A DNA stretch of 64,000 nt. It comes from Lama guanicoe (taxonomy: Eukaryota). The notes under the pieces are model-generated. The model saw nothing but the letters and a program-made list of their open reading frames with translations, searched no databases and was not told the origin of the DNA. The translations under genes and the position numbers were made by a program. Positions 26,830 to 52,633 of the stretch are shown here, piece after piece; the first letter of the stretch is position 1; every line of letters begins with the position of its first letter. The DNA is taken from positions 13,816,373 to 13,880,372 of the forward strand of contig MU053881.1 in assembly GCA_013239625.1 (NCBI GenBank). Reading direction: 5' to 3'.

Positions 26830-27580
26830 AGGTGGCTATTGATTGATTCATGCAATATATATGTTTTGATGATCTACAGCAAAGTTACGGTTGTAGGTGC
26901 TGGAGAGACACGGATGAGCAAAACAGGTCTGATCTCGCTTTCAAGGCATTTTCAGGCTAATGGGGGAGCCATGGCAGCAAATAATGAGCACAAATAGAAT
27001 GTGGTCAATCCCGATCAGTGTCAAGGAAGCCATGTGAGAGAATAACCCTGTGATGCGTGCTTCAGTCAGGGAGGTCAAAGACAGTCCCGCCAAGAAGGGG
27101 GCATTTATGCCCAAGTTGAAAGGTTGAGAAGAACCAGCCACATCAGTGTGGGTGTGCAGGGGGTGCTGGGAGAATGTGAACTTGAGGCGAGGGAGTAGCA
27201 TTTGCAAAGACCCTGAGGTGGAAGACACCTTGCTCATATCGGGAAAGCTCAAGTCAACCAAGTGGCTGGAGCTAGATGAGCATCGTGCGATGAGAGGAGG
27301 GACATCCAGGGACCAGCTCGTGCTGGGCCTACCAGGGCACGCTGAGAATGTGTGACCCTGTCTTAAGAGCATGGGGAGTCATTGGAGGATGGAGACGCGA
27401 TGTGATGTAACTTTAAAGATGGTCACCTGTATGCAGCATGACAGACCGATTAGAGGGGGGACAAGCGTGTAAACAGGGAGTCCATGGAGGTGGTTATCGC
27501 AGGAGCCCACGGGGAGGACCGTGGCTTGGTCCTGGGTCCTGGCCTGGAGGAAGGGAGAGGGATGGATTTGAAATTTTCTT
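26830..27580 (-). mobile_element. L2 LINE
   Basis: Antisense L2 text (gggagtagcatttgcaaagaccctgaggtgg...ggggagtcattggagg). Confidence 0.75.
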
Positions 27581-28039
27581 CAAAAAGAGACCCCAAAATA
27601 CTTACCTGCAGGGGAGGGAAAGGGAAGGGAAAGTGGGTCCATTCAATCTCAATCTCAAGTACGAAGCGGCCCTTGGGAAGAGGCTCCGTCCAGTCCCATT
27701 GCTGAGCCACTGACAGTGCCATTGACTGATGGGTGTGCATTTTAATTTTCAGATCTGTCTGTAAAGTTGGTATACACTCTATCCTGATTACACAGGACTA
27801 TTGTGAAGGAAAAAGTAGAATCATTCCTAGAACGCATTTATAAAGATGTCAAGCTCAGTGGGAGCGGAAGGTCCCGGCCACAGCGCTGCCCTCGTAGTGG
27901 AAGGCACCCACATCAATGTCAAAAAGTTGTGAAGGGTAAATGAACAGATAACAGTGTACTGAGTTTCACTCTCTAAACCATTTACTTCTCAATAAGGATT
28001 GATGTCTTGGGCCTGGCTCTGTGATTTATTAGCTTAGTA

Positions 28040-28280
28040 ACCTTGAAAATGTCAACAATATCAGATCAGGTACCATGTGCCAGACATTATGCTTAGTGAG
28101 CGCTTTGCACACTTCACCTCATTGACTCCTCACGGCCATCGGGTGTGCAGGACTTGTCCTTGTTTAGTAGGTAAAGAGGTTTCTGCCCCTGAGATTAGCT
28201 CACTTGACCTCACTTACTAACTAGAAAAGGTCTCTGGCAGAGCCAGGACTCAAACCAAGTTCTCAACACCCCGCTCAGCT
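28040..28280 (-). mobile_element. MIR SINE
   Basis: taccatgtgccagacatt...ggcagagccaggactcaaacc. Confidence 0.7.
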
Positions 28281-28441
28281 CTCCACGCGTCCATTTCTAT
28301 GTCTTGACACTGATATAATCCTGCCTGCCTTACATGTTAGTTGGGAAGATCAGATTAAATGGCATGTGTAAAATATATCTATAAACTGTAGTGTATTTTG
28401 GCAAATATGTGGAGTCTAAGACAGGTACAAGCTCTATGTAA

Positions 28442-28736
28442 TTTATTCTGCCAATTTACGGCCATGAATTAGATGCTTAGAAATCTGAGCGTTCATGTCC
28501 TTCTGCTGAGTCCTGAAGAGGTGATTTTTCTTTTGCATCTTTGTGTACTTTTGCATTTGTCATTTAGTTTTAATCTGTGTTTCTTCTCCTGGGACCTGGC
28601 TGAGGTGGTATGCTTGGGAGAACACACTTTTTTTTTTTTTGGTCTGCCTTTAATCGGCTATTTTGGATCTGTCACTGATGAACTGGCAGCTTTTCAGGAT
28701 GTCTTGAGATGATGCAATTTGAGATTAAGGTCTGTG
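28442..28736 (-). other. Putative terminal exon (E) of unidentified minus-strand gene/pseudogene
   Basis: Acceptor ttcttggctgccag at 28737; AATAAA at 28447-28442; stop at 28672 (phase-1 frame) or 28493 (phase-2 frame, interrupted by two stops). Confidence 0.45.
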
Positions 28737-28887
28737 CTGGCAGCCAAGAATTATAACTTTAAAATGTCTTAATAGATACAAAGTCCCGGTTAAGGTCACA
28801 TCCTGTAGAAATGTGGGGGAATAGCTTTTCCTCATTTTGACTGTGTTCAAAACTGGCAACAATTTAGAAAAATGGAAACTTACTCAC

Positions 28888-29054
28888 GTAACCCAGGACC
28901 CAAGAACTCCATACTCTTACTGAAAATATGCAAGGGCGAACAGACTGATTTAAATGAAGCAGATAATTGATACGAAGAATTAACAGATAATACCTTTCTT
29001 TTCAGATTTAGACATGCAGGTGACATTTCAGACATGCTACTGATTGAAAAAAGT
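28888..29054 (-). other. Putative internal exon D (may be two exons, 29054-28994 and 28919-28884)
   Basis: Acceptor tgtgcatttctatag; tandem donors TAC|GTGAGT and TGA|GTAAGT; one frame open throughout; internal 74-nt GT...tattttcAG segment. Confidence 0.5.
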
Positions 29055-29436
29055 CTATAGAAATGCACAGATAGTCTAATTTATGTCTAGCCCAATCAAA
29101 GATAAAAAAAATTCAGCAACACATGTAGACACAACACATTCCATTCTAGCTTTCACTTGGCGTGTGGGTCCCTGGTAGAAGGCTTAGGTGTCGATGGCAG
29201 TTCTTGAAGGATAAGATGACAATGAACTTGAGAAAGACCTAATTTGTGGTGTGTTATGTCACCATTCTGGAAGAACTTAAATGAGCTGTATGTGAACTTC
29301 CATTTCAGGGAATATTGACACATTCTAGACTCTTGAGTCATGATTAGCTAAGCAAGGCCAGATCCTCACCCAGGGAAGAAAACAGTGTCTAGATTTCTCT
29401 GGATAAAATCTCTTCCTATGTATCTTCTCTTGTTCC

Positions 29437-29504
29437 TTTGTCTGATGTGCTTGTGGAAGGGGGTGAGTTCAGGGTCTTTCTGCTCCCCTATCTTGGCCAA
29501 CCTC
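29437..29504 (-). mobile_element. Isolated L1 5'-terminal fragment (~70 bp)
   Basis: Aligns by eye to 1485-1554 (ttgtgg.ag.ggg.gag.tc...atcttggcc..cctc). Confidence 0.7.
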
Positions 29505-29625
29505 CTTTGCATATTTTTTCTACTCCAGAAAGCCTAACCACATTCCCTAGAAGGGAGCCAGAACAAGTGGAGAAAACACGGTGCTTTTTTTCTGTGATAA
29601 GTGACCAAACTTGTTCACAAGTCAC

Positions 29626-29679
29626 CTGTGTGGATGTGGAATCTGTAAGAAAGAGACTATCTCTCCAGGACTGGAAGTC
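29626..29679 (-). other. Putative 54-nt internal exon C
   Basis: Strong acceptor ctttcttctccctgctttgcag and donor CAG|GTGACT; frame-preserving length. Confidence 0.55.
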
Positions 29680-30339
29680 CTGCAAAGCAGGGAGAAGAAA
29701 GCGTCGGTGAACAATGCCTGTCCTGGTTCCTGCATAAAACTGCTGAAGACGTGGTAATGTGTGCTACCTCCATGCATCATTGTACGATAAGTAGGATAAA
29801 TGTTCAGACAGTGTTAATACACTGGCTATCATGTTTGCAAATAAATATGCTGAGAAGAGATCGTCATCAGAAGAAATGGCAATTTCGATAGTAAAAATTA
29901 CCGAATGCATTCACATGGGTGTGTATGGAGCAACAGCCTAAAGAAATGAATAATAAAATTGATCACAATGAATATAGAGGTCAATGCCTGGCCCTAAATG
30001 AATATCTAGTAAATAGTAAATGCCCAAAATTAATGGGATCAATTGTGGAGAAAAATCAATATGGCTGGTCTGTGTGAGAGCATTAACTTTAATGGTTCTC
30101 ATTTTTATGTATTAAGTCTACTTGAAAAAGAGCAAATGAGCAATAAAATAACTTAGGTTGGTACCTTGCTATTTTTCTTACGTGACAGTTGTGTTTTCTA
30201 TGGCTCAACCTAATTCCTGGCCATGTAAAACCAGAGGGACAACAGTTTCACCTCATGATTCCAAACAACCGGTTTGACTTCTTTTTATGGTGAATTGACT
30301 GTTTTAAAATCAGATTGTTTACAGTCACCTTTGGCTTGT

Positions 30340-31010
30340 TTGTTAGGATTAAATTCATTTGTTCATCAAACATTTACTTAATTCTTTCTATGTACCCAGT
30401 GAGTACTTTTATAGGAACTGAAAATACAGGAGTGAACAAGGCAGATAAGTTCCCTGCTCCCATGGAGATTATGTTTTGATGTGAGACAGACCATTAAGAA
30501 GAACATAAATAAGATTACTTCATAAACTAGTAATGTTATCAATCATAAAGAATAAAGTAAGTCACTAAACTGTTTATGTTTTGTGGGAAAGTACTCATGC
30601 ACATGGACTAGATGAGACATGGGGATCTGGGAAAAGTTCTCTGAAAAGATTAGCTTTTGGTCTCTGAATAATGAGGAACCGGCTATGGGACAAGTTGTGG
30701 GAAGAACATTCTAGGCAGGGTGAACAGCAAAAGAAAAAGCTCTGGGTCAGATATAAGCTTAGAGAGAATAAATTCTTGACATACAAGGCCAGTAAGCTGG
30801 AGCATAATGAAAAAGTGGGAGAGTGGTAAGAAATAAATTAGAGAGAAAGGGGCCAGAACTTGGTACATTTTCTAAACCTTGGAAACAAGGTTATATTTTA
30901 TCTTGAGTGCACTGGGAAACTGTTGGATGGTACTTAGTAGTCTGTGAAATGACTTACTTTAATTCTTTAATGGATTGTTTGGCTTCAATGTGGAGGGTGG
31001 GTTGGTCAAT
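30340..31010 (-). mobile_element. L2 LINE 3' part
   Basis: ttcatttgttcatcaaacatttact start; gaagaacattctaggcagggtgaacagc. Confidence 0.8.
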
Positions 31011-31238
31011 AAATCCCTGACCTAATAACTGTTTGGTTAGATGGTAACTTTTGCAATTCAGTTGCCAAATTCAACTGTCAAAATTTATTCACTCAGCCAG
31101 TGTTTGTTGAGCACTTCGTGCTATGCCCTAGGAATACAAAGACAGATAAGACATTGCCTCTGCCATCAAGAATCTCAAAGTCTAGCAAAAAACTGTTACA
31201 GAAAGTAAACAAATCATCATTTACAGTTTTGACTTTAC

Positions 31239-31313
31239 CTAAGTGAAGGTACAGATGTTTCTTCCTAATTTGAATTTGACATGGATTAGAGGACTGGAAT
31301 CTACGGCTCTCCA
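31239..31313 (-). other. Possible 75-nt phase 1-1 exon X
   Basis: ttcttcag acceptor (weak, poly-A upstream) and TAG|GTAAAG donor; open frame VESRRFQSSNPCQIQIRKKHLYLHL. Confidence 0.25.
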
Positions 31314-31509
31314 CTGAAGAATTCCTTTTTTTTTTTTTTTTTTTTTGGCCTGAGGGTCTGCTAATTAGCAATAGCCTTTATATTAGTCAGGCCTTCTTCA
31401 GTTGCAATGGATGAGAAATCAAACTAGCTTAAGACAAAAAAGAAGTATATGGAAGATTTATTACTTCCACGTAAATCTAAAATTAGTTCAAAGTAAAATG
31501 TTTCTAAGT

Positions 31510-31745
31510 TGTAGAATGCATCTAAAGCAGTGTTTAGAGTGAAATGTGTGGTGTAATAGCAATTTACAACTTCAAGTACTTATGTTAGAAAAGAAAAAGA
31601 GTGAAATCAGTGATTGAAATTTCTCCCTTACAAAGTTAGAAAAAGAACACATTCAATTCCAAGTAAATAGAAACAAGGAAAACTTATATAAAGATAGAAA
31701 TTAATAAAATGGAAAACAGACAATACAGAAAATTAACAGAGAGCA
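31510..31745 (+). mobile_element. L1 ORF2 fragment
   Basis: atgcatctaaagcagtgtttagag...aagttagaaaaagaa, the WDAAKAVLRG region. Confidence 0.75.
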
Positions 31746-31863
31746 AACCAACTTTCTAAACTCTACTTTTTGTACGTCTAAATACATATATCTACTTGTT
31801 TCTGCCAAGTAGTTAAGAATAATTTTTTTTTTTAAATTCACAACTCGAAGCTTTTTGGACTAC

Positions 31864-32016
31864 CCAAATAATATTATTTTGTGCTTCAAAACGCCTTCAA
31901 AGGCAGGCATGTTGTTAAACAGTTCAGGGATTCCTGTGTCTTGCTTAGCACCAATGCAGCGTTCACTGTGGTCCCAGGGGTTGGATGAGCCATTTATTTC
32001 TGATTCATAAGTTACA
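31864..32016 (-). other. Putative internal exon B (153 nt; 3' end uncertain)
   Basis: Acceptor catctcttttag; open frame VTYESEINGSSNPWDHSERCIG...; donor weak (TGG|GTAGTC), or a decayed AAG|GC site at 31895. Confidence 0.42.
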
Positions 32017-32206
32017 CTAAAAGAGATGCCCTTTGGTCTGCCAGATTTATAAAGTGAAAATCTCCTGTTAGAACCCCCTTTTTTTTCAGTTTGCCAACAA
32101 AACTCTGAAAACTGGAGCTCAGATTCACTCATTTTGAAATACCCTCAGGTCAGAAGCAGTCTCAAGTGTTCTGCTTACTGCTGCGGATTCTGGGCTTCAC
32201 TTAAAG

Positions 32207-32519
32207 CAGAGGTCAGCAAACAGTTTTCATAAAGAGTTAGATCATGTAGGCACTGATTGCAGTCATAACATCTCATCATGACGACTCAACCCTGCCATTT
32301 AGGGCAAAAGCAGCAGTGAAAAATAAAATAAATGAGGAGGCTATGTTTCAGTAAAACTTCACTTGAACATTGAAATTTGAGTTTCACATAATTTTCATGT
32401 GGCACTTTTTTTTTTTTTGCAGCTATTTAAAACTATGGAAAACATTCTTAGCTTAGGGACCACGCAAAAACAGACAGCTGCCCAGATTTGTCTCACGGGC
32501 TGGAGTTTACCAACCTCTG
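32207..32519 (+). mobile_element. MER58-type hAT-Charlie MITE, complete
   Basis: TIRs cagaggtcagcaaac / gtttaccaacctctg; 8-bp degenerate TSD acttaaag / actcacag. Confidence 0.85.
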
Positions 32520-33179
32520 ACTCACAGATTTGCCTGATATATTTTTGCTTCTTTGTTAGTCTTTGCTGGTATATGTTTATACATGTATTTGTGTGTGTGT
32601 GTGTGTGTGTGAGTCTCCATGTGACAGGAGACTATGATCAGATTAACAAAAATTGAAGTAAATGCAGAAGAACATTTAGGAATACTTACAGATTCCTTAA
32701 TCTTCCTACATTTTTCACAGTTTTTAGACTGTAAGGTCTCATCCATTTAGATTTAGAGCCATTTCTTCACCAGAGTTAGAATTAAAAAGAGAGTCTGTAT
32801 GCAGGCAGGCAGAGAGTGATGTATCTGCAGACCAAGGAGTGCTGGAGGGAACTAGTTACAAAACCTAGGCATAATAGAAAGAGCAACTGCCTGAGGCACT
32901 GAGGATTGGGCAGAAGAAGGCACGGTGGTGGGAGTGCTCTGTTGGGGCTGGGGAGGAGTAGGACTGAACGAAGTAAGTTCTGTTTTCCCAGCCTTTGGTC
33001 TAGGACTAAGTGCATTTGGTATGGCTCAGGTGAGGTGGCAAGAGTGCACTTGGATTTTTTTTTTAATGCACTTTTTTCCTGGCAAGGGGAACTGCAGCTA
33101 CTGAGATAAATTAGGAAATCCTGGAAGGAAAAAAAGGTGGGGTGGGGAATCCTGCAATTCTTTCTACCCACATCTCTGA

Positions 33180-34420
33180 TTAGCCCCTGGACCACATATG
33201 GATGGCCAGACCCAGAACAGCTTGACTAAAGACAGAATATCTGGAAATGACAGAAGTTAAGGTAGATTGGTAGAAGTTATCTAATTTGAAGAAGAGAGAG
33301 AGAAAAAAATAAAAGTAAGAAAATAAGAGAAAGGAAAATAAAATTAAATGGACAGAGCTCTGAGGACCTGTTAAAAAATAACAAATGCCTATAATGAAAA
33401 AATATGAAAACGAATATATGTATGTATATGGATGAATGAAACATGCTGTTTGTACACTAGAAATTGACACAAGATTGTAAACTGACTAGACTTCAATAGG
33501 AAAAATAATAATGACAAATGGTCTGACATATTGGACAACTGGAATCCTGAAAGGGGAAGAAAGAAAAAATTATATGACAGCAAAAATATTTTAAAGTAAT
33601 GGCTCCAAATTCCCCATATGTGATTGAAGAAATTTGCAGATACAAGATGGTTAATAAACACAAAGCAGAAACAAACATGAAGAAGCTCATACTGTCAAAC
33701 TATTAAAAGCTACAATCAACCTATTAAACACCAGAGATGAAAAGCAAATCTTGAGAGAGTAGCCAGGGAAAATATACATTACCAACGGGGAACAGTGATC
33801 CAATGAATGTCTGATTTCCCGTCAGAAACCATGGAGGCCAGAAGAGAGTGGAACAACTCTTTTAAAGTGCTGAAAGAAATAGAAAAATCATGCCAGATTC
33901 TGTAAATTAGAATTTTTTTTTAATCCCGAAGTAGAAAATTCAGAGGAAAAAAAACAACCTTAAAAAATCAAGACCAATTCATCCTAAAGAAAACTAAGAG
34001 AATTCTCTACCAGTTAAAGTCTTTAAGGGAAATCTACAGACTAAAAGAAATGACACCAGATGGAAATTCACATCCTCAAATAACACTTAAGCACATTGTA
34101 AATAATATGCATCTGAATAAATTTTTAAAGCATTTTATTCTTTTTTACTTTTCCTCTTAATTTCTTATCAGTTATGTAACTTTGAAGCAAAATTTAATGT
34201 TGTCTTGTGGGGTTTATAATACACAAAGATAAAATATATATAACAGCGATAACACAAAGGATTGAGTTTATAGAGGTGTATACTACTGCCAGATTCTTAA
34301 ATTTGTGTGAAAAGGTACTAGTTTATCTCTAAGCAGATCATGAAACAATAAGGATGTATTTTGTTTTCCCTAAAACAACAACTTTAAAAGATGCAATGAA
34401 GTATTAAAAAGTATTAGAAG
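33180..34420 (+). mobile_element. Old L1 ORF1-region fragment
   Basis: ORF1-like text (gatttcccgtcagaaaccatggaggccagaagagagtggaac). Confidence 0.8.
33388..33509 (+). mobile_element. Camelid L1 3' tip nested in the older L1
   Basis: TSD aataacaaatg (33377-33387) / aatgacaaatg (33510-33520); same 3'UTR end as the copies at 6.3 and 23.5 kb. Confidence 0.8.
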
Positions 34421-34479
34421 AGGCTGCAGGATGCTCTGTAGGAGATTTGAGGGCTGAACAGTAACAGGTGAGAATGGAA

Positions 34480-34895
34480 TTAGAAGAGCTCTCATGGGCT
34501 ACTGGAGGAGCCCCAGAGCTGCACCACTTGAATCTCCTTTCAAGAAAAAACTTGACTTTTGATTGTGCTAAGCTGACAGCTTCCAGCTGTTAACACCTTC
34601 AGAACCTGCCTCAGCTTTCAAGCTGAAGTCATGGTTTTCCTGGGCACCTCCAGACAGAGACTGAGCGTGGTGGGGCACTGGGGCCCGGACATTTCTGTCC
34701 AGCTCAGGACTTCTCTAGTGGAAAATCTTTGTTCCAGCGATCCTCCACTGGGTTGCCAGGACTTTCTCCCTGTCTACACTGTGGTCAGAAACCTTTCTTC
34801 AACGCTGCTTCCTCTCCTTTCATCTTTCTCCCGTAGTAAACCTCTTGTAGTCCTAATTACATCTCAGCATCCGCTCCCCGAGGACCCAATTAATG
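34480..34895 (+). mobile_element. ERVL LTR (LTR16-like)
   Basis: 3' end agtaaacctcttgtagtcctaattacatctcagcatccgctccccgaggacccaa resembles LTR16. Confidence 0.6.
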
Positions 34896-35904
34896 CTGCT
34901 CCCCTTCCAAAGCTGAGACTGTGCCTGCCTTCTTTAGTTTTCCAGAAAACTGTGATTTATCTGAAGCAAGAGGCGGACAGAGAAGGAAGCATCATTTTTG
35001 CCCGAAGGTTATGAGAAGGGATGTTGTGCCACTTTCCTGTAAACATGCTTCTCCCTCAAGAAGGTCCACAGTGGTGTAGAAATATGCAGCGTCTACATGC
35101 TGGAAGTGCCAAAGTCAAGATCACATTTTTATCCTGGCTTTTCCTGCCCCATAGAGAGGTGACAACAGTATTCAAACATGTTTGCTGAAATAGGCACATG
35201 GGCACATGAAATAAATTCAAGCTATTTATATTTATTGTCACAACACGTCAGTCAAGGTAGAGAAGAGAGTTCTATGCTATTCTTTATTCCTACACTAGAA
35301 GAAATACGGAGCCATTATGGAATGATAAGAGTAATATGAATAAAAATGTAAGAATGAAGCAAGGCTCTTAGGTTTCACTGGTCAAGACAGACTATTAGAA
35401 TCAAGAAATGGCTTTTTTCTTATTTTAATTAAAAAAAAAAGAAGGGTAATTTTGAGACTAGAAACATAAGTAACAAATTTGCACCCATTCAAAATGATGA
35501 TCTTGGGCTCCAAAAAGGAGTCAGTGATCCATTTAACACTTCCTCAATCAGAAGGTTGAAACTTACAGGAGAGTAGGGAGTTGCTGAGTATAAAAGAAAC
35601 AGCACAGGTCTGGCTTGCAGCCTGATTGCACTACATCATAACTGTGATCATGGCTCTGAACTTGATGTTTTCATCTGTAAAACGGACAGAATAACAACAA
35701 AGCAGAAAAATTACTCGGATAAAATAAAAAGATAAAATGATCTGTCAATACCTGGCTGCCAAAGGACTCTCAGATGGTCATATTATCAATTATAGTATAA
35801 TTAGACACATAATTATATTGCAATTATATTAACAAACTGATTATCTATAGATCAGATCAGAGGGCTGCTATTCCCAACCAGGACAATAGAGATGAACAAG
35901 AAAG

Positions 35905-36450
35905 CATATATTCGTTTTCATATTCTTTTTCACCATAGGTTACTGCAAGATATCGAATATATTTCCCTGCGCTATTCAGCGTGAACTTGTTGTTTATCTA
36001 TTTTTTGTATATCAGTATTTGCAAATCTCTAACTCCCAACTTATCCCCTCCTACCATGGTAACTACAAGCTTGTTCTCTATGTCTGAGAATCTGTTTCTG
36101 TTTTGCAAATAAGTTCATTTGTGTTTTGTTTTTTTTTTAGATTCCATCTATAAATGATATCATATGGTATTTTTCTTTCTCTTTCTGGCTTACTTCATGT
36201 GGAATGACAATCTCCAGGTCCATCCATGTTGCTGCAAATGGCATTATTTTATTCTTTTTTATGGCTGGGTGGTATTCCATTGTATTTGTACCACAACTTC
36301 TTTATCCAGTCATCTGTCGATGGACATTTAGGTTGTTTCCATGTTTGGCTATTGTAAATAGTGCTGCTATGAACATTGGGGTGCATGTGTCTCTTTGAAC
36401 TAAGGTTCCCTCTGCACATATGCCCAGGAGTGGGATTGTTGGATCATATA
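35905..36450 (-). mobile_element. Camelid L1 3' fragment
   Basis: Closely similar to 6320-6924. Confidence 0.88.
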
Positions 36451-36609
36451 GGAAAAAAAAAAAACAATTGTTATTAAGGGGGAAAACGAACCCTTTACAG
36501 TTCTCCCTTTATCCCACAATAACCTTGATCTTGCTTCCTTAGTGGTCCTTAGAGGTAAAGTGAAGGAGGGAGAGAGAGAAGGCAGAACAAGGAGAAAGCA
36601 GGGAGACAT

Positions 36610-37040
36610 TAAAGTAAGAGCACACTTGCTGCCTGGCAGAGAACCTCACGTTGTTTTAGCTTTTCTTAAATTCTTGCAACCATATGTGATAAATGCTACA
36701 ATATCCGCTTTACATACTAGGAAACAGGGCCTCAGAAAGTCTCATGAAAACACCCAAGGCCACACAACTGGATGTGTAGAGGGGGAGTTTGACCACCCTA
36801 TGGCTTGACACCAAAGCCTAAGGGAAAGGGGGCAAAAAAGAACACTTGCCCTGTGTGACACTTTACAAAGTGCTTCCCCTACTTGATTTTATTCTACTTC
36901 ACAGAAGATTGGCGAGGAAAGTAAATATGGCAGGTTGGATTTTACAGACGAGGGAGACGGAGTCTCAGAAAGGTTCCATGGCATGCTCAAGGTCACACAA
37001 CAAAGTAGAGAAGGCAGGTTTTGGGGGTCCCATCCCCTCT
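36610..37040 (-). mobile_element. Two adjacent MIR copies
   Basis: Cores tttacatactaggaaacagggcctcaga and ttttacagacgagggagacggagtctcaga. Confidence 0.7.
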
Positions 37041-37403
37041 CTTTTCCCTTGTTCCACTCCCAAGTGAATAGAGGACAGGGAGGAATCTGGAGCAATGTCG
37101 GCCAACTATCCCAGAGAGGAAGAATTTATCTCTATCTTCTGAAAAGGCCCTTGACCATTTCCCTCCCATCATGCAACCTCAGTTCTCATATGAAATTGTA
37201 AGCTCCACAAGAGCAGGAAAAAAAAAAGTTTGTCTTTTACACGGCTGACTAAAGCCCCAATACTTCCTGCAACGCTGGCATGGAGGGAGCAGTTGATGCA
37301 GATTTGTTGAATAAATCAAAGAATTAAGTAGATACAAAGAGAGTGCCAAGCCCTCAAATACCCATTAAGAATGAATTTATAGCTTTGGCAGAGGATGGCT
37401 CAC

Positions 37404-37522
37404 CTGTGAGAGCCTTTAACTACCCCCAAGTAAGCCCTGGTGATGTGCGTGGATGTTTCCTGAGTAAATTTCACTTGTATGTTCACTTTCTTTGTGGTTG
37501 CTGTGGATAACATTTTTCACCT
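37404..37522 (-). other. Putative exon A (ATG at 37513) of the minus-strand candidate
   Basis: Acceptor catttctag and strong donor CAG|GTGAGC; 36 codons + 2 nt open from the ATG, phase fits exon B. Confidence 0.45.
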
Positions 37523-38749
37523 CTAGAAATGTAGATCTCTGGATTTGCAGTAGCTGCCTAACTTTTCCCATTTCTTTCCAGGAGGAAATCAAACATCTCA
37601 TCAAGTATGTGACTCTTTGGCCTTCTGAGTGACCCCAGCCCTGCAGCATCTGGCCTGCATCCAAGGTACCACGGTTTGGAAGTGTGGTGGACATCTTTGA
37701 CCACCTGCCAGGTAGGATGACTTAAGAACAAGGATTTGTTTCTCAGAGTTCAATTACACAAAGAGTTAAGTTATTAGACTTCTTCCATAATCAGCTTAAA
37801 ATCAAGTTAGTGTGACTCCTAAAGCTAGAAGAACAGCATGGCATAACCAAGAAGACCTAATAAATAGTGGAAAAAAAGTACATTTTTTTTATCAGAAAAA
37901 GGTTGTGTGAGAGAATGCAAACCCGTGGCAGACTTGTTCCGTTAGCTTGCCAGATGGGAATCCGAGGTCCCAGGGGTAGGGATGGAGCCGCGGGATGCTC
38001 CTCACACTAATGAGGTTTGCCCTAGAATCCGAGGAGACAGATGGATCTGCAGGTTGGAAGCCCTCAGCAGTCTCCCTGGGACTTGGCGCCATTTCGTTGG
38101 GCCAACTCCCGCCTCTAGCCACTCCCCTTTCTGTGCCCTCCTTCCCCCTCTTCTACCTCCGCTTCTACTTGTTTTGGTAGCTTGTGTAATGTCTGTGCCC
38201 CAGTAAATGTTCCCCCCTGCAAACTTCCTTCTGCATCTCATTGACTGACTCCTTTTCTGACCTCACATAATTCTCTCTCCCTCCTGCCTTTCCCCTCCTC
38301 CCTTCCCCCAGTGTTTTGGTCTGTAACAGCTCCATCTTAATCCTTTCTGACCCCATTAAATTTCTGTTTATTCACAAGTGTTCCAGAAAGAGGTCATGCG
38401 TGAATTAATGAGAAAGAAAGGAAGACACTATTAGAAAATCTCATTTCTGTGTTCCATATTCAATTTAAGGATTTTTTTTTTCTGTTGGGAAAAAAAATGG
38501 GAGAAAATGCTTTCGTCATTTGAGGAAGTGTGGGGGTCTTCCTGCCCACTGCCAGCCTTTAGAACTCTGTGATCTCAGCTAATGTAGATGATCCAATCTC
38601 ACACAGTGAGAAATGAGTAGATTTCCATGAATCATGGCAGATCCACCAAAAAGAGAATAATTCCCAGACACCAAGCTTCATGTCCAAGCATGTGCATGTA
38701 CACTAGCTTGGGAACTCTGGTTCATTGGCTTTTCATGGGGGAATGCTTG

Positions 38750-39395
38750 TGATACAGAAAAAATGAGTGTGGGGTGAGAGGATGATCATGTCCCAGATCT
38801 CAGCTGAGTCCCTGGGACGTGCCCTGCCAAGTATGGGTCCTTGGCTTCATGCAGGAAGGAATTCAAGATCAAGCCATAGTTGAGTAAAAGTAGATTTATT
38901 TAGAGAGATACATAGTCCATAGAGTGCAGGCTGTTTCAGAAGGCAAGAGAAAGGCCGTGAGGTGTGGGGGCTGGTGCTGTAAAAGTACGTACACATTCCA
39001 TAGACGGGGTGTGGTCCATCTCACTCCAAAGGGAAAGCGGCCACCACGAGGTGCAGTGTTGCTAGTTTTTCTGGGTTCAGTAGTTTCATATGCTGACAAG
39101 TGGAGGATTATTCCAACTACTTTTGAGGAAGCAGCTGGGATTCTCAGGAATTGGGCCACCTCCCACTTTTTGACCTTTTATGGTTATCCTTGGAATTGTC
39201 ATGACGCCTGTGGGAGTGTCATTCCCTGTATTAATAGATTACAACGAGCATATAAGGAAGCTCCAGGTCTACTGGAAGTCAAATCTCCCACCATCTTGGG
39301 CTTCAAGGTCTACTGGGAGCTGAATCTTCCACCATTTTTGTGTTAATTGCTGTGTCGTTCTTTGAATGGCTGTGCCCCCCCCACCTCCTGTCTCA
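38750..39395 (-). mobile_element. Solo ERV1 LTR, MER41-like
   Basis: Ends ...cctgtctca; AATAAA on minus at 38900-38895; the segment ggattattcc...ttctcaggaattgggccacctccc...tgtcatgacgcctgtgggagtgt parallels MER41. Confidence 0.7.
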
Positions 39396-39530
39396 CCTAG
39401 GCTGCAAGAACCAATCCCACTGGTGCAATTGGGCATCATAGCCTCCTGTGTTCTGTTTCATCTCCCTCCAAGCTCCAATAGCAGTCAAAGTGCTCTTGCC
39501 GACATAAAGTATACCTTTAAGTGATGTGCG

Positions 39531-39897
39531 ATATATATATATATATATATNNNNNNNNNNNNNNNNNNNNNNNNNNNNNNNNNNNNNNNNNNNNNNNNNN
39601 NNNNNNNNNNNNNNNNNNNNNNNNNNNNNNNNNNNNNNNNNNNNNNNNNNNNNNNNNNNNNNNNNNNNNNNNNNNNNNNNNNNNNNNNNNNNNNNNNNNN
39701 NNNNNNNNNNNNNNNNNNNNNNNNNNNNNNNNNNNNNNNNNNNNNNNNNNNNNNNNNNNNNNNNNNNNNNNNNNNNNNNNNNNNNNNNNNNNNNNNNNNN
39801 NNNNNNNNNNNNNNNNNNNNNNNNNNNNNNNNNNNNNNNNNNNNNNNNNNNNNNNNNNNNNNNNNNNNNNNNNNNNTATATATATATATATATATAT
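39531..39897. repeat. (AT)n microsatellite spanning an assembly gap (326 N, 39551-39876)
   Basis: Direct read; AT repeats on both sides of the Ns. Confidence 0.95.
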
Positions 39898-51390: not shown

Positions 51391-52039
51391 TTATAGTAAC
51401 CAAGCACTGCATCTTCAATGAGACGTTATCATTTGGTAATAGCAGAGAAACTGGTCCAAATGGAGACTAAATATAAATCCTTTAGGTCATATTTCACTTA
51501 ACCTAAGTCTTCAACATTTCAGCACTAGATGGCATTTCAGAATTTGGTTTCAGCCATCATGACACAGAAGGGGAGAGTGAAGCTCCAAATGGCTGAATGA
51601 CTTACCTGGGGTGTCCAGGGGCTAGATTCATGATGGTCTTAGGACAGTCTGCTAAATTGTGGTAGCCTTTGGAGGACAGGATGAATGTTTTCCCCTTAGA
51701 ATATATACTAACATTTTTGAAAAGGGAAAGCCATCTTCAAATAATATTGATTCACTAGGCTAGGAATTTGTACTTTTTTTTCTGCTCATACCTTAGAGAG
51801 TAATACGGAAATCTATATCACGTACCATCACTGTTGGAGAATGAGCAGGAGAGTTACATTCCAGAGTCATGGGAGAGGGAAGGAAGAGGACAGGGCAACT
51901 TATTGTTGATCCTATAAACTTGATCATTTGATTAAAAACTATGACACTGTTTATATCTCTATATCCATATACAAATACATACTTTTAAAGGTATTTTTAT
52001 TTAGACACTTCATTTTGTAGATAGGGATAATCTCAACTG

Positions 52040-52633
52040 TTGAAATTGTTGTGGAAAAATGTGTTACAGCTCAGTGTTATAGCTCGGTGTTACAGCTCAG
52101 TTGTGACAGCAACCTGGATCCATGTGAGAGACCAAGCAGCACTCAGAGTTGGAGAACTCAGGTTTATTATGCCAGCAGGCCCAGAAGAGTTGACACTCCA
52201 AGCTCTGGACCCTGTCTGTAGGTTTACACAGGCCTTTATAGCCTGCCAGTTTACACTTTGTAACATCATATGCAAATAAAGTATAACAAAAGTTGACCAA
52301 CTAGGAACAAGCTTTGTAGAAATAGACCAATCAGAAGGGAGAGGAATAACCAATCAGGAGTGAGCTCCATGCAAATAAAGTACTACAAATGGACCAATCA
52401 GAAGTTAGGGAAATGGACCAATCAGAAATGAGAGTAATAACCAATCAGGAGTGAAGGAACTAACCAATCAGAAGTGAGCTCAGGGAACCAATAGAATTTT
52501 AGGGGTAAGTAAGCTTTTTCAGAGGCAAAAAGTGAGATAGAGCCTCTGGGCCAGGGAACTGGATGGTGCTGGAAAGAGAGTAGTTGCCCTACTTGCGGGT
52601 CCTGCCAGTCTTTTTATGGGGCTTCCCACCTCA
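52040..52633 (-). mobile_element. Solo ERV1-type LTR with CCAAT-box array
   Basis: Ends ...cccacctca; minus-strand TATAAA (52240-52235) and AATAAA (52168-52163); 7 CCAAT boxes in U3; 13-bp tandem repeats at 52062-52110. Confidence 0.85.

Follow-up and report, generated by a model that had tools for sequence, protein, structure and literature searches.

Within the 64,000 nt of Lama guanicoe DNA analysed here (the window), a minus-strand locus first put forward as an orphan or fast-evolving gene of 182 aa is likely to be a non-coding RNA gene, or a set of chance splice signals beside a short conserved stretch, and not a new protein, because such frames can be stitched from ordinary DNA around half of the time and no related protein was found. 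The best reading, held tentatively, is that of a candidate minus-strand spliced lncRNA, which would start in a conserved block near 38090. A spliced lncRNA had been the second option of the original prediction, and it remains the leading one because the sites of donor A and exon C are strong, the four-exon chain is seldom equalled, and just upstream lies a conserved block that ends in a same-strand donor; the transcript itself is a prediction from these features.

Exon architecture and splice sites

The model consists of five exons, A to E, and a putative polyadenylation signal, with a repeat in its first intron:

37404..37513, minus strand: exon A, from the proposed ATG (donor 12.2 bits, 99.9th percentile)
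35905..36421, strand not given: interspersed repeat that occupies part of intron 1 and recurs elsewhere in the window (self-BLAST)
31864..32016, minus strand: exon B, a questionable exon (4.0 bits at its acceptor, 2.0 bits at its donor)
29626..29679, minus strand: exon C, the most clearly delimited of the five (12.4 + 9.2 bits) and free of stops in two frames
28888..29054, minus strand: exon D (donor 6.5 bits, acceptor 4.9 bits)
28672..28736, minus strand: exon E, the coding part in the proposed model (acceptor 7.2 bits)
28442..28447, minus strand: AATAAA, candidate polyadenylation signal (sequence motif)

The exon coordinates of the original prediction hold (lengths of 110, 153, 54, 167 and 65 nt), AG precedes B, C, D and E, GT follows A, B, C and D, and joining the exons reproduces phases 2,2,2,1 and a frame of 549 nt that begins with ATG, lacks internal stops and ends in a stop after 182 residues, the single-exon translations matching the proposed peptide by eye. 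AATAAA is found at 28447, 225 nt past the stop as described, with ATTAAA additionally at 28654 and 28574. The exons were also said to lie in repeat-free islands, which is borne out in part: self-BLAST of 27000-39400, which detects repeats having a further copy in the window, places no repeat over any of the five. The intron 1 repeat is presumably the 3′ end of an L1 element. A plus-strand gene across the same exons was rejected, as scanning found nothing coherent and Pfam returned no match for the plus frames tried.

Splice sites were scored with generic matrices. Donor A and both exon C sites rank in the top 1 % of scored sites; donor A is one of 21 minus-strand donors of at least 10 bits in 64 kb, and exon C one of five equally strong site pairs (≥21.6 bits) in the window. 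The proposed ATG (37513) has an A at position −3, an in-frame TGA ending 3 nt upstream and a candidate acceptor at 37522. For exon B and for exon D alike, the frame required by the model is the sole open one, and exon C is open also in phase 0. Rival acceptors that outscore those chosen exist for exon D (29171, 5.9 bits; 29039, 5.3 bits) and for exon E (28802, 8.4 bits). The 182-codon frame needs acceptors weaker than their neighbours, with use of 29171 giving 60 codons and that of 32104 giving 42.

Exon B is the weak link of the model. Its donor, already suspected of weakness, indeed scores only 2.0 bits (75th percentile of 6,532 GT sites), and alternative donors give 88 codons. A 94-codon genomic ORF encloses the exon, and ORFs of at least 70 codons listed for the window number 154, this one included. 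Because this 2.0-bit donor sits 2 nt ahead of an in-frame stop, the exon looks to have been picked to keep the frame open.

Chance level of the joined frame

Five-exon open chains of at least 549 nt are present in all 14 non-overlapping tiles when no poly(A) signal is required (in two of which the model is touched on the same strand), and 10 of the 14 score at least 58.4 bits, the score of the model. With AATAAA required, a chain occurs in 36 of 40 overlapping tiles (48 minus the eight touching the model) and reaches the model score in 17, the corresponding figures for Markov simulations being 93/100 and 45/100. Even within its own stretch the model is beaten by another five-exon chain (61.9 bits). 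The 182-codon frame thus lies within chance and is likely a by-product of splice-site choice; when exons are joined by hand, 9 kb of mammalian DNA will yield a five-exon frame of 180 codons about as often as not, and such a frame cannot serve as evidence for a gene.

Rarer is the chain A-C-D-E without B, of 131 codons. No other four-exon chain in its stretch scores better, and it finds a match in 4/40 tiles and 3/100 simulations, at thresholds taken post hoc from the model. This comparison demands an open frame, so that the rarity suits a coding gene equally.

Coding signature and relatives

Codon log-odds are negative in all five exons, falling between the 13.5th (exon D) and 65th percentiles of stop-free stretches, as judged with a generic human codon table and with no known coding exon in the window for calibration. 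Codon use therefore looks like that of stop-free non-coding DNA.

The original prediction proposed a protein search of its peptide, and searches exon by exon reveal no genuine protein relative for exons B and D. For exon B, no candidates occur among proteins of 89-2000 aa, and the one match in 1.84 billion representatives (P0001, E = 4.7e-9) was rejected, being a 52-residue tandem-repeat translation in which weak matches of 24 bits per copy are summed; the one Pfam match of P0001 has no passing stretches. For exon D, none of seven candidates reaches E ≤ 1 among proteins of 98 or more residues, and a spliced product of at least 98 residues containing this exon is absent from the protein collection searched. 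Length floors (89 residues for B, 98 for D) apply to these protein searches, and exons A and C fall below the length for a word search. Exact look-up found none of four single-exon ORFs in the protein collection, none of eight frames matched Pfam, the PDB holds nothing for exons A and D, and the Atlas yields no usable match for exon A and a best value of 0.88 for exon D. One sequence found under exon D, L001, was set aside as chance (24 residues at 67 %, on a contig of 63 % GC, with a DNA match of at most 15-19 nt). The same collection returned counterparts of DNA 500 nt away, and hence does hold sequences related to the locus. With regard to structured RNAs, Rfam gives no match at gathering score in the window, and none at E ≤ 1 in 27500-38600. 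With the frame within chance, codon use at background, and no relative for A, B or D, the proposal of an orphan or fast-evolving 182-aa protein gene is unsupported.

A conserved block upstream of exon A

The original prediction had missed a conserved block, which is new to the present analysis. In and around it lie the following features:

37734..38444, minus strand: region with counterparts elsewhere (tblastn of P0002-P0006 on the window)
37895..38092, minus strand: 66-codon ORF over the core, in strong Kozak context (ORF scan and cluster comparison)
38003..38086, minus strand: gap-free conserved core, a candidate 'exon 0' or enhancer core (cluster alignments and site scores)

All eight relatives of 37734..38444, which likely come from mammals, use three window frames, and on these alignments the region is non-coding, because they switch reading frame. 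The core (38086-38003) lies 500 nt upstream of exon A. Five clusters of unnamed ORFs match it, with 23, 26, 26, 25 and 25 of 28 residues identical across the five representatives; the substitutions visible by eye affect first as well as second codon positions. It stops at a minus-strand donor, on the strand shared with A-E, and its flanks change frame. Four of the five clusters quit the frame of the window directly after the core (3 of the next 12 residues identical), and P0002 holds it beyond the donor (7/12 residues). Conservation of this donor, at 38006, was read off protein translations, not DNA. Acceptors are present at 38075, 38046 and 38021, that of the 38075-38006 stretch scoring 5.8 bits. 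Points against the lncRNA reading include the recurrence of strong sites in the window and the moderate score of donor 38006 (6.1 bits).

The 66-codon ORF was rejected as a conserved protein, its start and downstream frame not being kept: its Met is at the same place in one of the five clusters, one codon later in two, and absent nearby in two. Joining exon 0 to eight acceptors gives ORFs of 30-77 codons; a phase-0 join at 37520 stays open for 63 codons and then meets a stop close to where A ends. There are 10 CpGs in 37901-38200, compared with a mean of 2.8 per 300 nt, at an observed/expected ratio of 0.42, short of a CpG island. A CpG-rich block at 301-1500, which we take to be L1 5′-like, was dismissed as a promoter of this gene, lying 27 kb downstream on the strand of the model. 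RFX-type motifs near 38100 match poorly by eye and were set aside. From its sequence, the block at 38086-38003 fits a conserved non-coding first exon or an enhancer.

Sequencing runs

Among 20 runs listed for 28420-29720, word shares are 0.27-0.34 in four RNA runs from a single study (labelled reproductive system), 0.16-0.20 in four guessed-RNA runs of a second study, and 0.86-0.91 in six unlabelled runs, the remaining six being raw-read runs outside the index. A spliced C+D+E model predicts a share of 0.31. RNA contig sets of 589-937 million letters, set against ~2,040 million in the near-complete sets (taking the letters column as contig totals), lead one to expect 0.25-0.40 for any locus, and all eight RNA runs lie at or below this level. 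The listing does not separate exons from background; as evidence of expression, the runs count neither way and name no tissue.

A candidate lncRNA and its alternatives

For the lncRNA we infer transcription, its strand, every junction and the effect of the upstream ORF as follows. RNA polymerase II would start in the GC- and CpG-enriched stretch at ~38200-38000, the conserved first exon would exit at donor 38006 and be spliced into A, C, D and E with B mostly skipped, and the transcript would end at AATAAA 28447. The targets of selection would be the promoter, the first exon and the first donor, a protein not being among them. With its strong context, the ATG at 38092 would capture most scanning ribosomes, directing them to frames of 30-77 codons and leaving the ATG at 37513 poorly used; the 66-codon ORF would, if transcribed, act as an upstream ORF. 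A coding signature is lacking in protein searches, Pfam, codon use and the chain null, and a short conserved 5′ patch, typical of lncRNAs and not required of them, is seen as the core in 5/5 clusters, its transcription being presumed. Of what one would look for in a conserved protein gene, neither relatives of A, B or D within the lengths searched, nor a better-than-chance ORF, nor coding codon use was found.

Short 5′-biased conserved patches are described for lncRNAs in PMC7536183, and the locus resembles the mammalian intergenic lncRNAs treated there in its short conserved 5′ block, multi-exon layout, AT-rich exons without a coding signature and poly(A) signal, although it is itself a candidate transcript. 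Unannotated spliced non-coding transcripts are, moreover, very common in camelids, 32,259 lncRNAs being predicted for Bactrian camel testis in PMC10718809.

Less likely, though quite possible, is that no stable transcript exists. A-E would then be pseudo-exons that arose by chance in intronic or intergenic sequence, and the block would serve as enhancer or promoter to some gene beyond the window. Five-exon chains are commonplace, strong lone sites are frequent (the five pairs and 21 donors noted above), and the Rfam searches of the window and of 27500-38600 are empty; enhancers, too, present as gap-free conserved cores with frame-switching flanks. With a near-invariant core of ~85 nt amid 700 nt that are moderately conserved, and with flanks that lose the frame, the sequence resembles conserved non-coding elements and enhancers. 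The break in frame (4/5 clusters), however, falls directly after a donor on the strand of A-E, which an enhancer does not need, and the four-exon chain is the best in its own stretch and matched by just 3/100 simulations.

An older mammalian gene, in which 38075-38006 (70 nt) is a coding exon leading into another frame of A and C, is improbable, whether it has decayed into a unitary pseudogene or still specifies a small protein that lacks annotation. The core is gap-free, 23-26/28 identical, and flanked by splice sites of 5.8 bits (acceptor) and 6.1 bits (donor), exon C is open in phase 0 too, the phase-0 join gives 63 codons, and the search with the upstream ORF covered proteins of at least 117 residues; yet the five clusters consist, in the eight members read, of ORF calls without a name, made on contigs of 1.1-3.1 kb, to which neither NCBI nor UniRef contributed, Pfam gives nothing for six frames around the core and exon C, and the core changes at first and second codon positions.

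About as improbable is a camelid-restricted protein gene in the course of de novo birth atop an older non-coding promoter and first exon, with a 131-codon frame (182 with B as an optional in-frame cassette) translated from 37513, past the short upstream ORF. Frame-switching, non-coding counterparts were found for 38444-37734, a span outside exons A-E. In favour of this reading, relatives are not expected of a young gene, the ATG has its A at −3, B and D are open solely in the frame of the model, and the four-exon open chain is uncommon; against this, the frame hinges on the weaker acceptors and the chosen B donor, an ATG in stronger context lies upstream if the transcript begins in the conserved block, and the collection searched holds no spliced product of at least 98 residues with exon D. 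In PMC4697840, de novo ORFs of human and chimpanzee score higher for coding than intronic ORFs, unlike the exons here, which equal the stop-free background. The model shares with those genes a relative-free ORF, a spliced layout and a size within 36-199 aa (rows shown), whilst they were defined from assembled transcripts with raised coding scores, the present model is a prediction from DNA sequence, and its upstream element has older counterparts.

If an lncRNA, the locus would be one of tens of thousands in camelids, with a conserved first block that would make it an above-average candidate for function. If the frame were instead translated, it would represent the birth of a gene over an old promoter that can be dated, in a lineage where such cases have received little study.

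Exons A–E and their splice sites

The original prediction of a five-exon minus-strand gene with a 182-residue product is partly confirmed. Recomputation returns all exons at their proposed positions, with GT–AG boundaries in phases 2, 2, 2 and 1, joining into 549 nt from ATG to stop with no internal stops. An AATAAA is located at 28447, and none of the five exons overlaps a repeat detected by self-BLAST, which registers within-window repeats only.

Exons A–E, with splice-site scores from consensus matrices and percentiles among 6,532 GT and 8,868 AG sites
37513–37404 (−): exon A, 110 nt; donor 12.2 bits (99.9th)
32016–31864 (−): exon B, 153 nt; acceptor 4.0 bits (86th), donor 2.0 bits (75th)
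29679–29626 (−): exon C, 54 nt; acceptor 12.4 bits (99.8th), donor 9.2 bits (99th)
29054–28888 (−): exon D, 167 nt; acceptor 4.9 bits (90th), donor 6.5 bits (96th)
28736–28672 (−): exon E, 65 nt; acceptor 7.2 bits (96th)

Donor A is one of 21 minus-strand donors of at least 10 bits in the window, and exon C one of five equally strong site pairs. The donor of exon B is weak, as had been cautioned, and so is its acceptor; this exon sits within a 94-codon genomic ORF, its donor lying 2 nt ahead of that ORF's stop. Stronger neighbouring sites disrupt the frame (42 codons with acceptor 32104, 60 with 29171), alternative exon B donors give 88 codons, and with acceptors 29039 and 28802 the frame largely survives (126 and 124 codons when exon B is left out). 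Strong minus-strand donors also occur on either side:

13547–13500, 23991, 23915 (−): donors downstream of exon E; 11.9, 12.5 and 10.7 bits
60408, 54034, 51606, 44905 (−): upstream donors with candidate exons; 10.4–12.7 bits

The downstream sites possibly mark further exons; the 48-nt stretch 13547–13500 has an open phase-1 frame, as does the end of exon D, but is preceded by an acceptor of only 1.0 bits. Those upstream may be part of a longer transcript or reflect chance; beside candidate exon 51666–51606, the stretch 51515–51540 closely resembles, by eye, the CTCF motif.

A conserved block upstream of exon A

A GC-richer stretch, absent from the original prediction, lies 400–700 nt upstream of exon A.

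37901–38200: 57 % GC; 10 CpG against a mean of 2.8; CpG observed/expected 0.42
38092–37895 (−): 66-codon ORF
38086–38003 (−): conserved core
38009–38179 (+): 57-codon ORF across the core; no Pfam match and not in the protein collection
39552–39877: assembly gap of 326 N with (AT)n on both sides, 1.4 kb upstream of the block
301–1500: CpG-dense block, the sole one in the window (7 of 421 bins hold at least 10 CpG)
52319–52477: 45-nt unit with a CCAAT, repeated four times with spacing, repeat family D10

The surrounding window is AT-rich, mammal-like DNA (30–50 % GC per 2 kb) with abundant interspersed repeats, presumably L1 and SINE elements; no known gene was recognised anywhere in the 64 kb, and Rfam found nothing in it. 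We take 301–1500 to resemble an antisense L1 5′ end rather than a gene promoter, and the CCAAT-unit array to be LTR-like in arrangement.

In a search of proteins of at least 117 residues, the 66-codon ORF matches five clusters among 17 candidates; every cluster consists of unnamed ORFs called on 1.1–3.1 kb contigs from ENA or Logan. Aligned to the window, these relatives span 38444–37734 (−), each of the eight using all three minus-strand frames and none reaching exon A; the matches are likely to be orthologous DNA from other mammals, rather than a conserved protein. The core aligns without gaps (23, 26, 26, 25 and 25 identities of 28 residues), a comparison of translations in which third positions are hidden. 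The ORF's methionine holds the same position in one cluster, lies one codon later in two and is absent nearby in two, whilst the frame is lost directly after minus-strand donor 38006 (6.1 bits) in four of the five and kept in the fifth (representative P0002). We read the core as a putative conserved first exon or regulatory core. Spliced in silico to eight acceptors before exon A, ATG 38092 opens 30–77 codons, or 52 if A is skipped.

The most likely reading, held tentatively, is a spliced minus-strand lncRNA arising from this block. A polymerase II transcript would begin within it, splice from donor 38006 into exon A and then C, D and E, and end at AATAAA 28447; constraint would fall on the promoter and first exon, the long frame being incidental. 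The sites, the conservation and the chance level of the frame are observed; transcription, the junctions and shielding by the upstream ORF are inferred. A sequencing-run listing was set aside as expression evidence, exonic signal there being inseparable from background.

Alternatively, and at lower probability, A–E may be pseudo-exons adjoining an enhancer. A decayed or small-protein gene with 38075–38006 as coding exon is improbable, the search with that query having covered proteins of at least 117 residues. Third positions of the plus-strand ORF match those of the minus frame, so plus-strand coding is possible.

The open frame and its coding signature

The frame was compared with the highest-scoring open chain of five exons, 549 nt or longer, using site thresholds just under the model's weakest sites. 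Such a chain occurs in all 14 tiles (comparison stretches of the window), and in 10 of them it reaches or exceeds the model's score of 58.4 bits. With AATAAA required and the 8 of 48 tiles touching the model excluded, 36 of the remaining 40 yield a chain and 17 equal the model's score, as do 45 of 100 Markov simulations (93 with a chain). Since these chains are common in both, the five-exon ORF is itself no evidence. Without exon B, A–C–D–E (131 codons, 52.4 bits) is the top chain in its own stretch; only 4 of the 40 tiles and 3 of the 100 simulations contain its equal. This rarity is only a hint because the thresholds derive from the model. It is compatible with a real spliced unit and, as the test requires an open frame, fits a young coding gene too.

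Codon log-odds, from a human codon table in a window offering no positive control, are negative in all five exons (63rd, 60th, 42nd, 13th and 65th percentiles for A–E against equal-length stop-free stretches). The joined product is 15 % serine and lacks a membrane segment, its highest hydropathy over 19 residues being 1.12. Exon B has no candidates among proteins of 89–2000 residues, its single match in 1.84 billion representatives being rejected as a tandem-repeat translation (24 bits per copy). For exon D, none of seven candidates among proteins of at least 98 residues reached E ≤ 1, the best Atlas match was 0.88 and PDB gave none; a match in a GC-rich metagenome contig was put down to chance. 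Exon A found nothing usable in the Atlas and nothing in PDB, and Pfam gave no match for eight frames, then for six more. Because the upstream ORF found relatives in the collection, the lack of matches for B and D carries some weight, within their length limits. Three features expected of a conserved coding gene were looked for in A–E and not found: the ORF is at chance level, codon log-odds are negative, and B and D are without real relatives. The orphan or fast-evolving protein gene first proposed is not supported; least probable is a camelid de novo protein. The de novo genes of PMC4697840 are testis-enriched and similar in size, but had raised coding scores.

Comparison with known loci

The lncRNA interpretation, as a predicted transcript, is plausible. 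The candidate transcript would resemble those mammalian lncRNAs that carry a short conserved patch at the 5′ end (PMC7536183). In camel testis, 32,259 lncRNAs are predicted (PMC10718809), and this locus could be among them. It would at best be another example of an already known kind.
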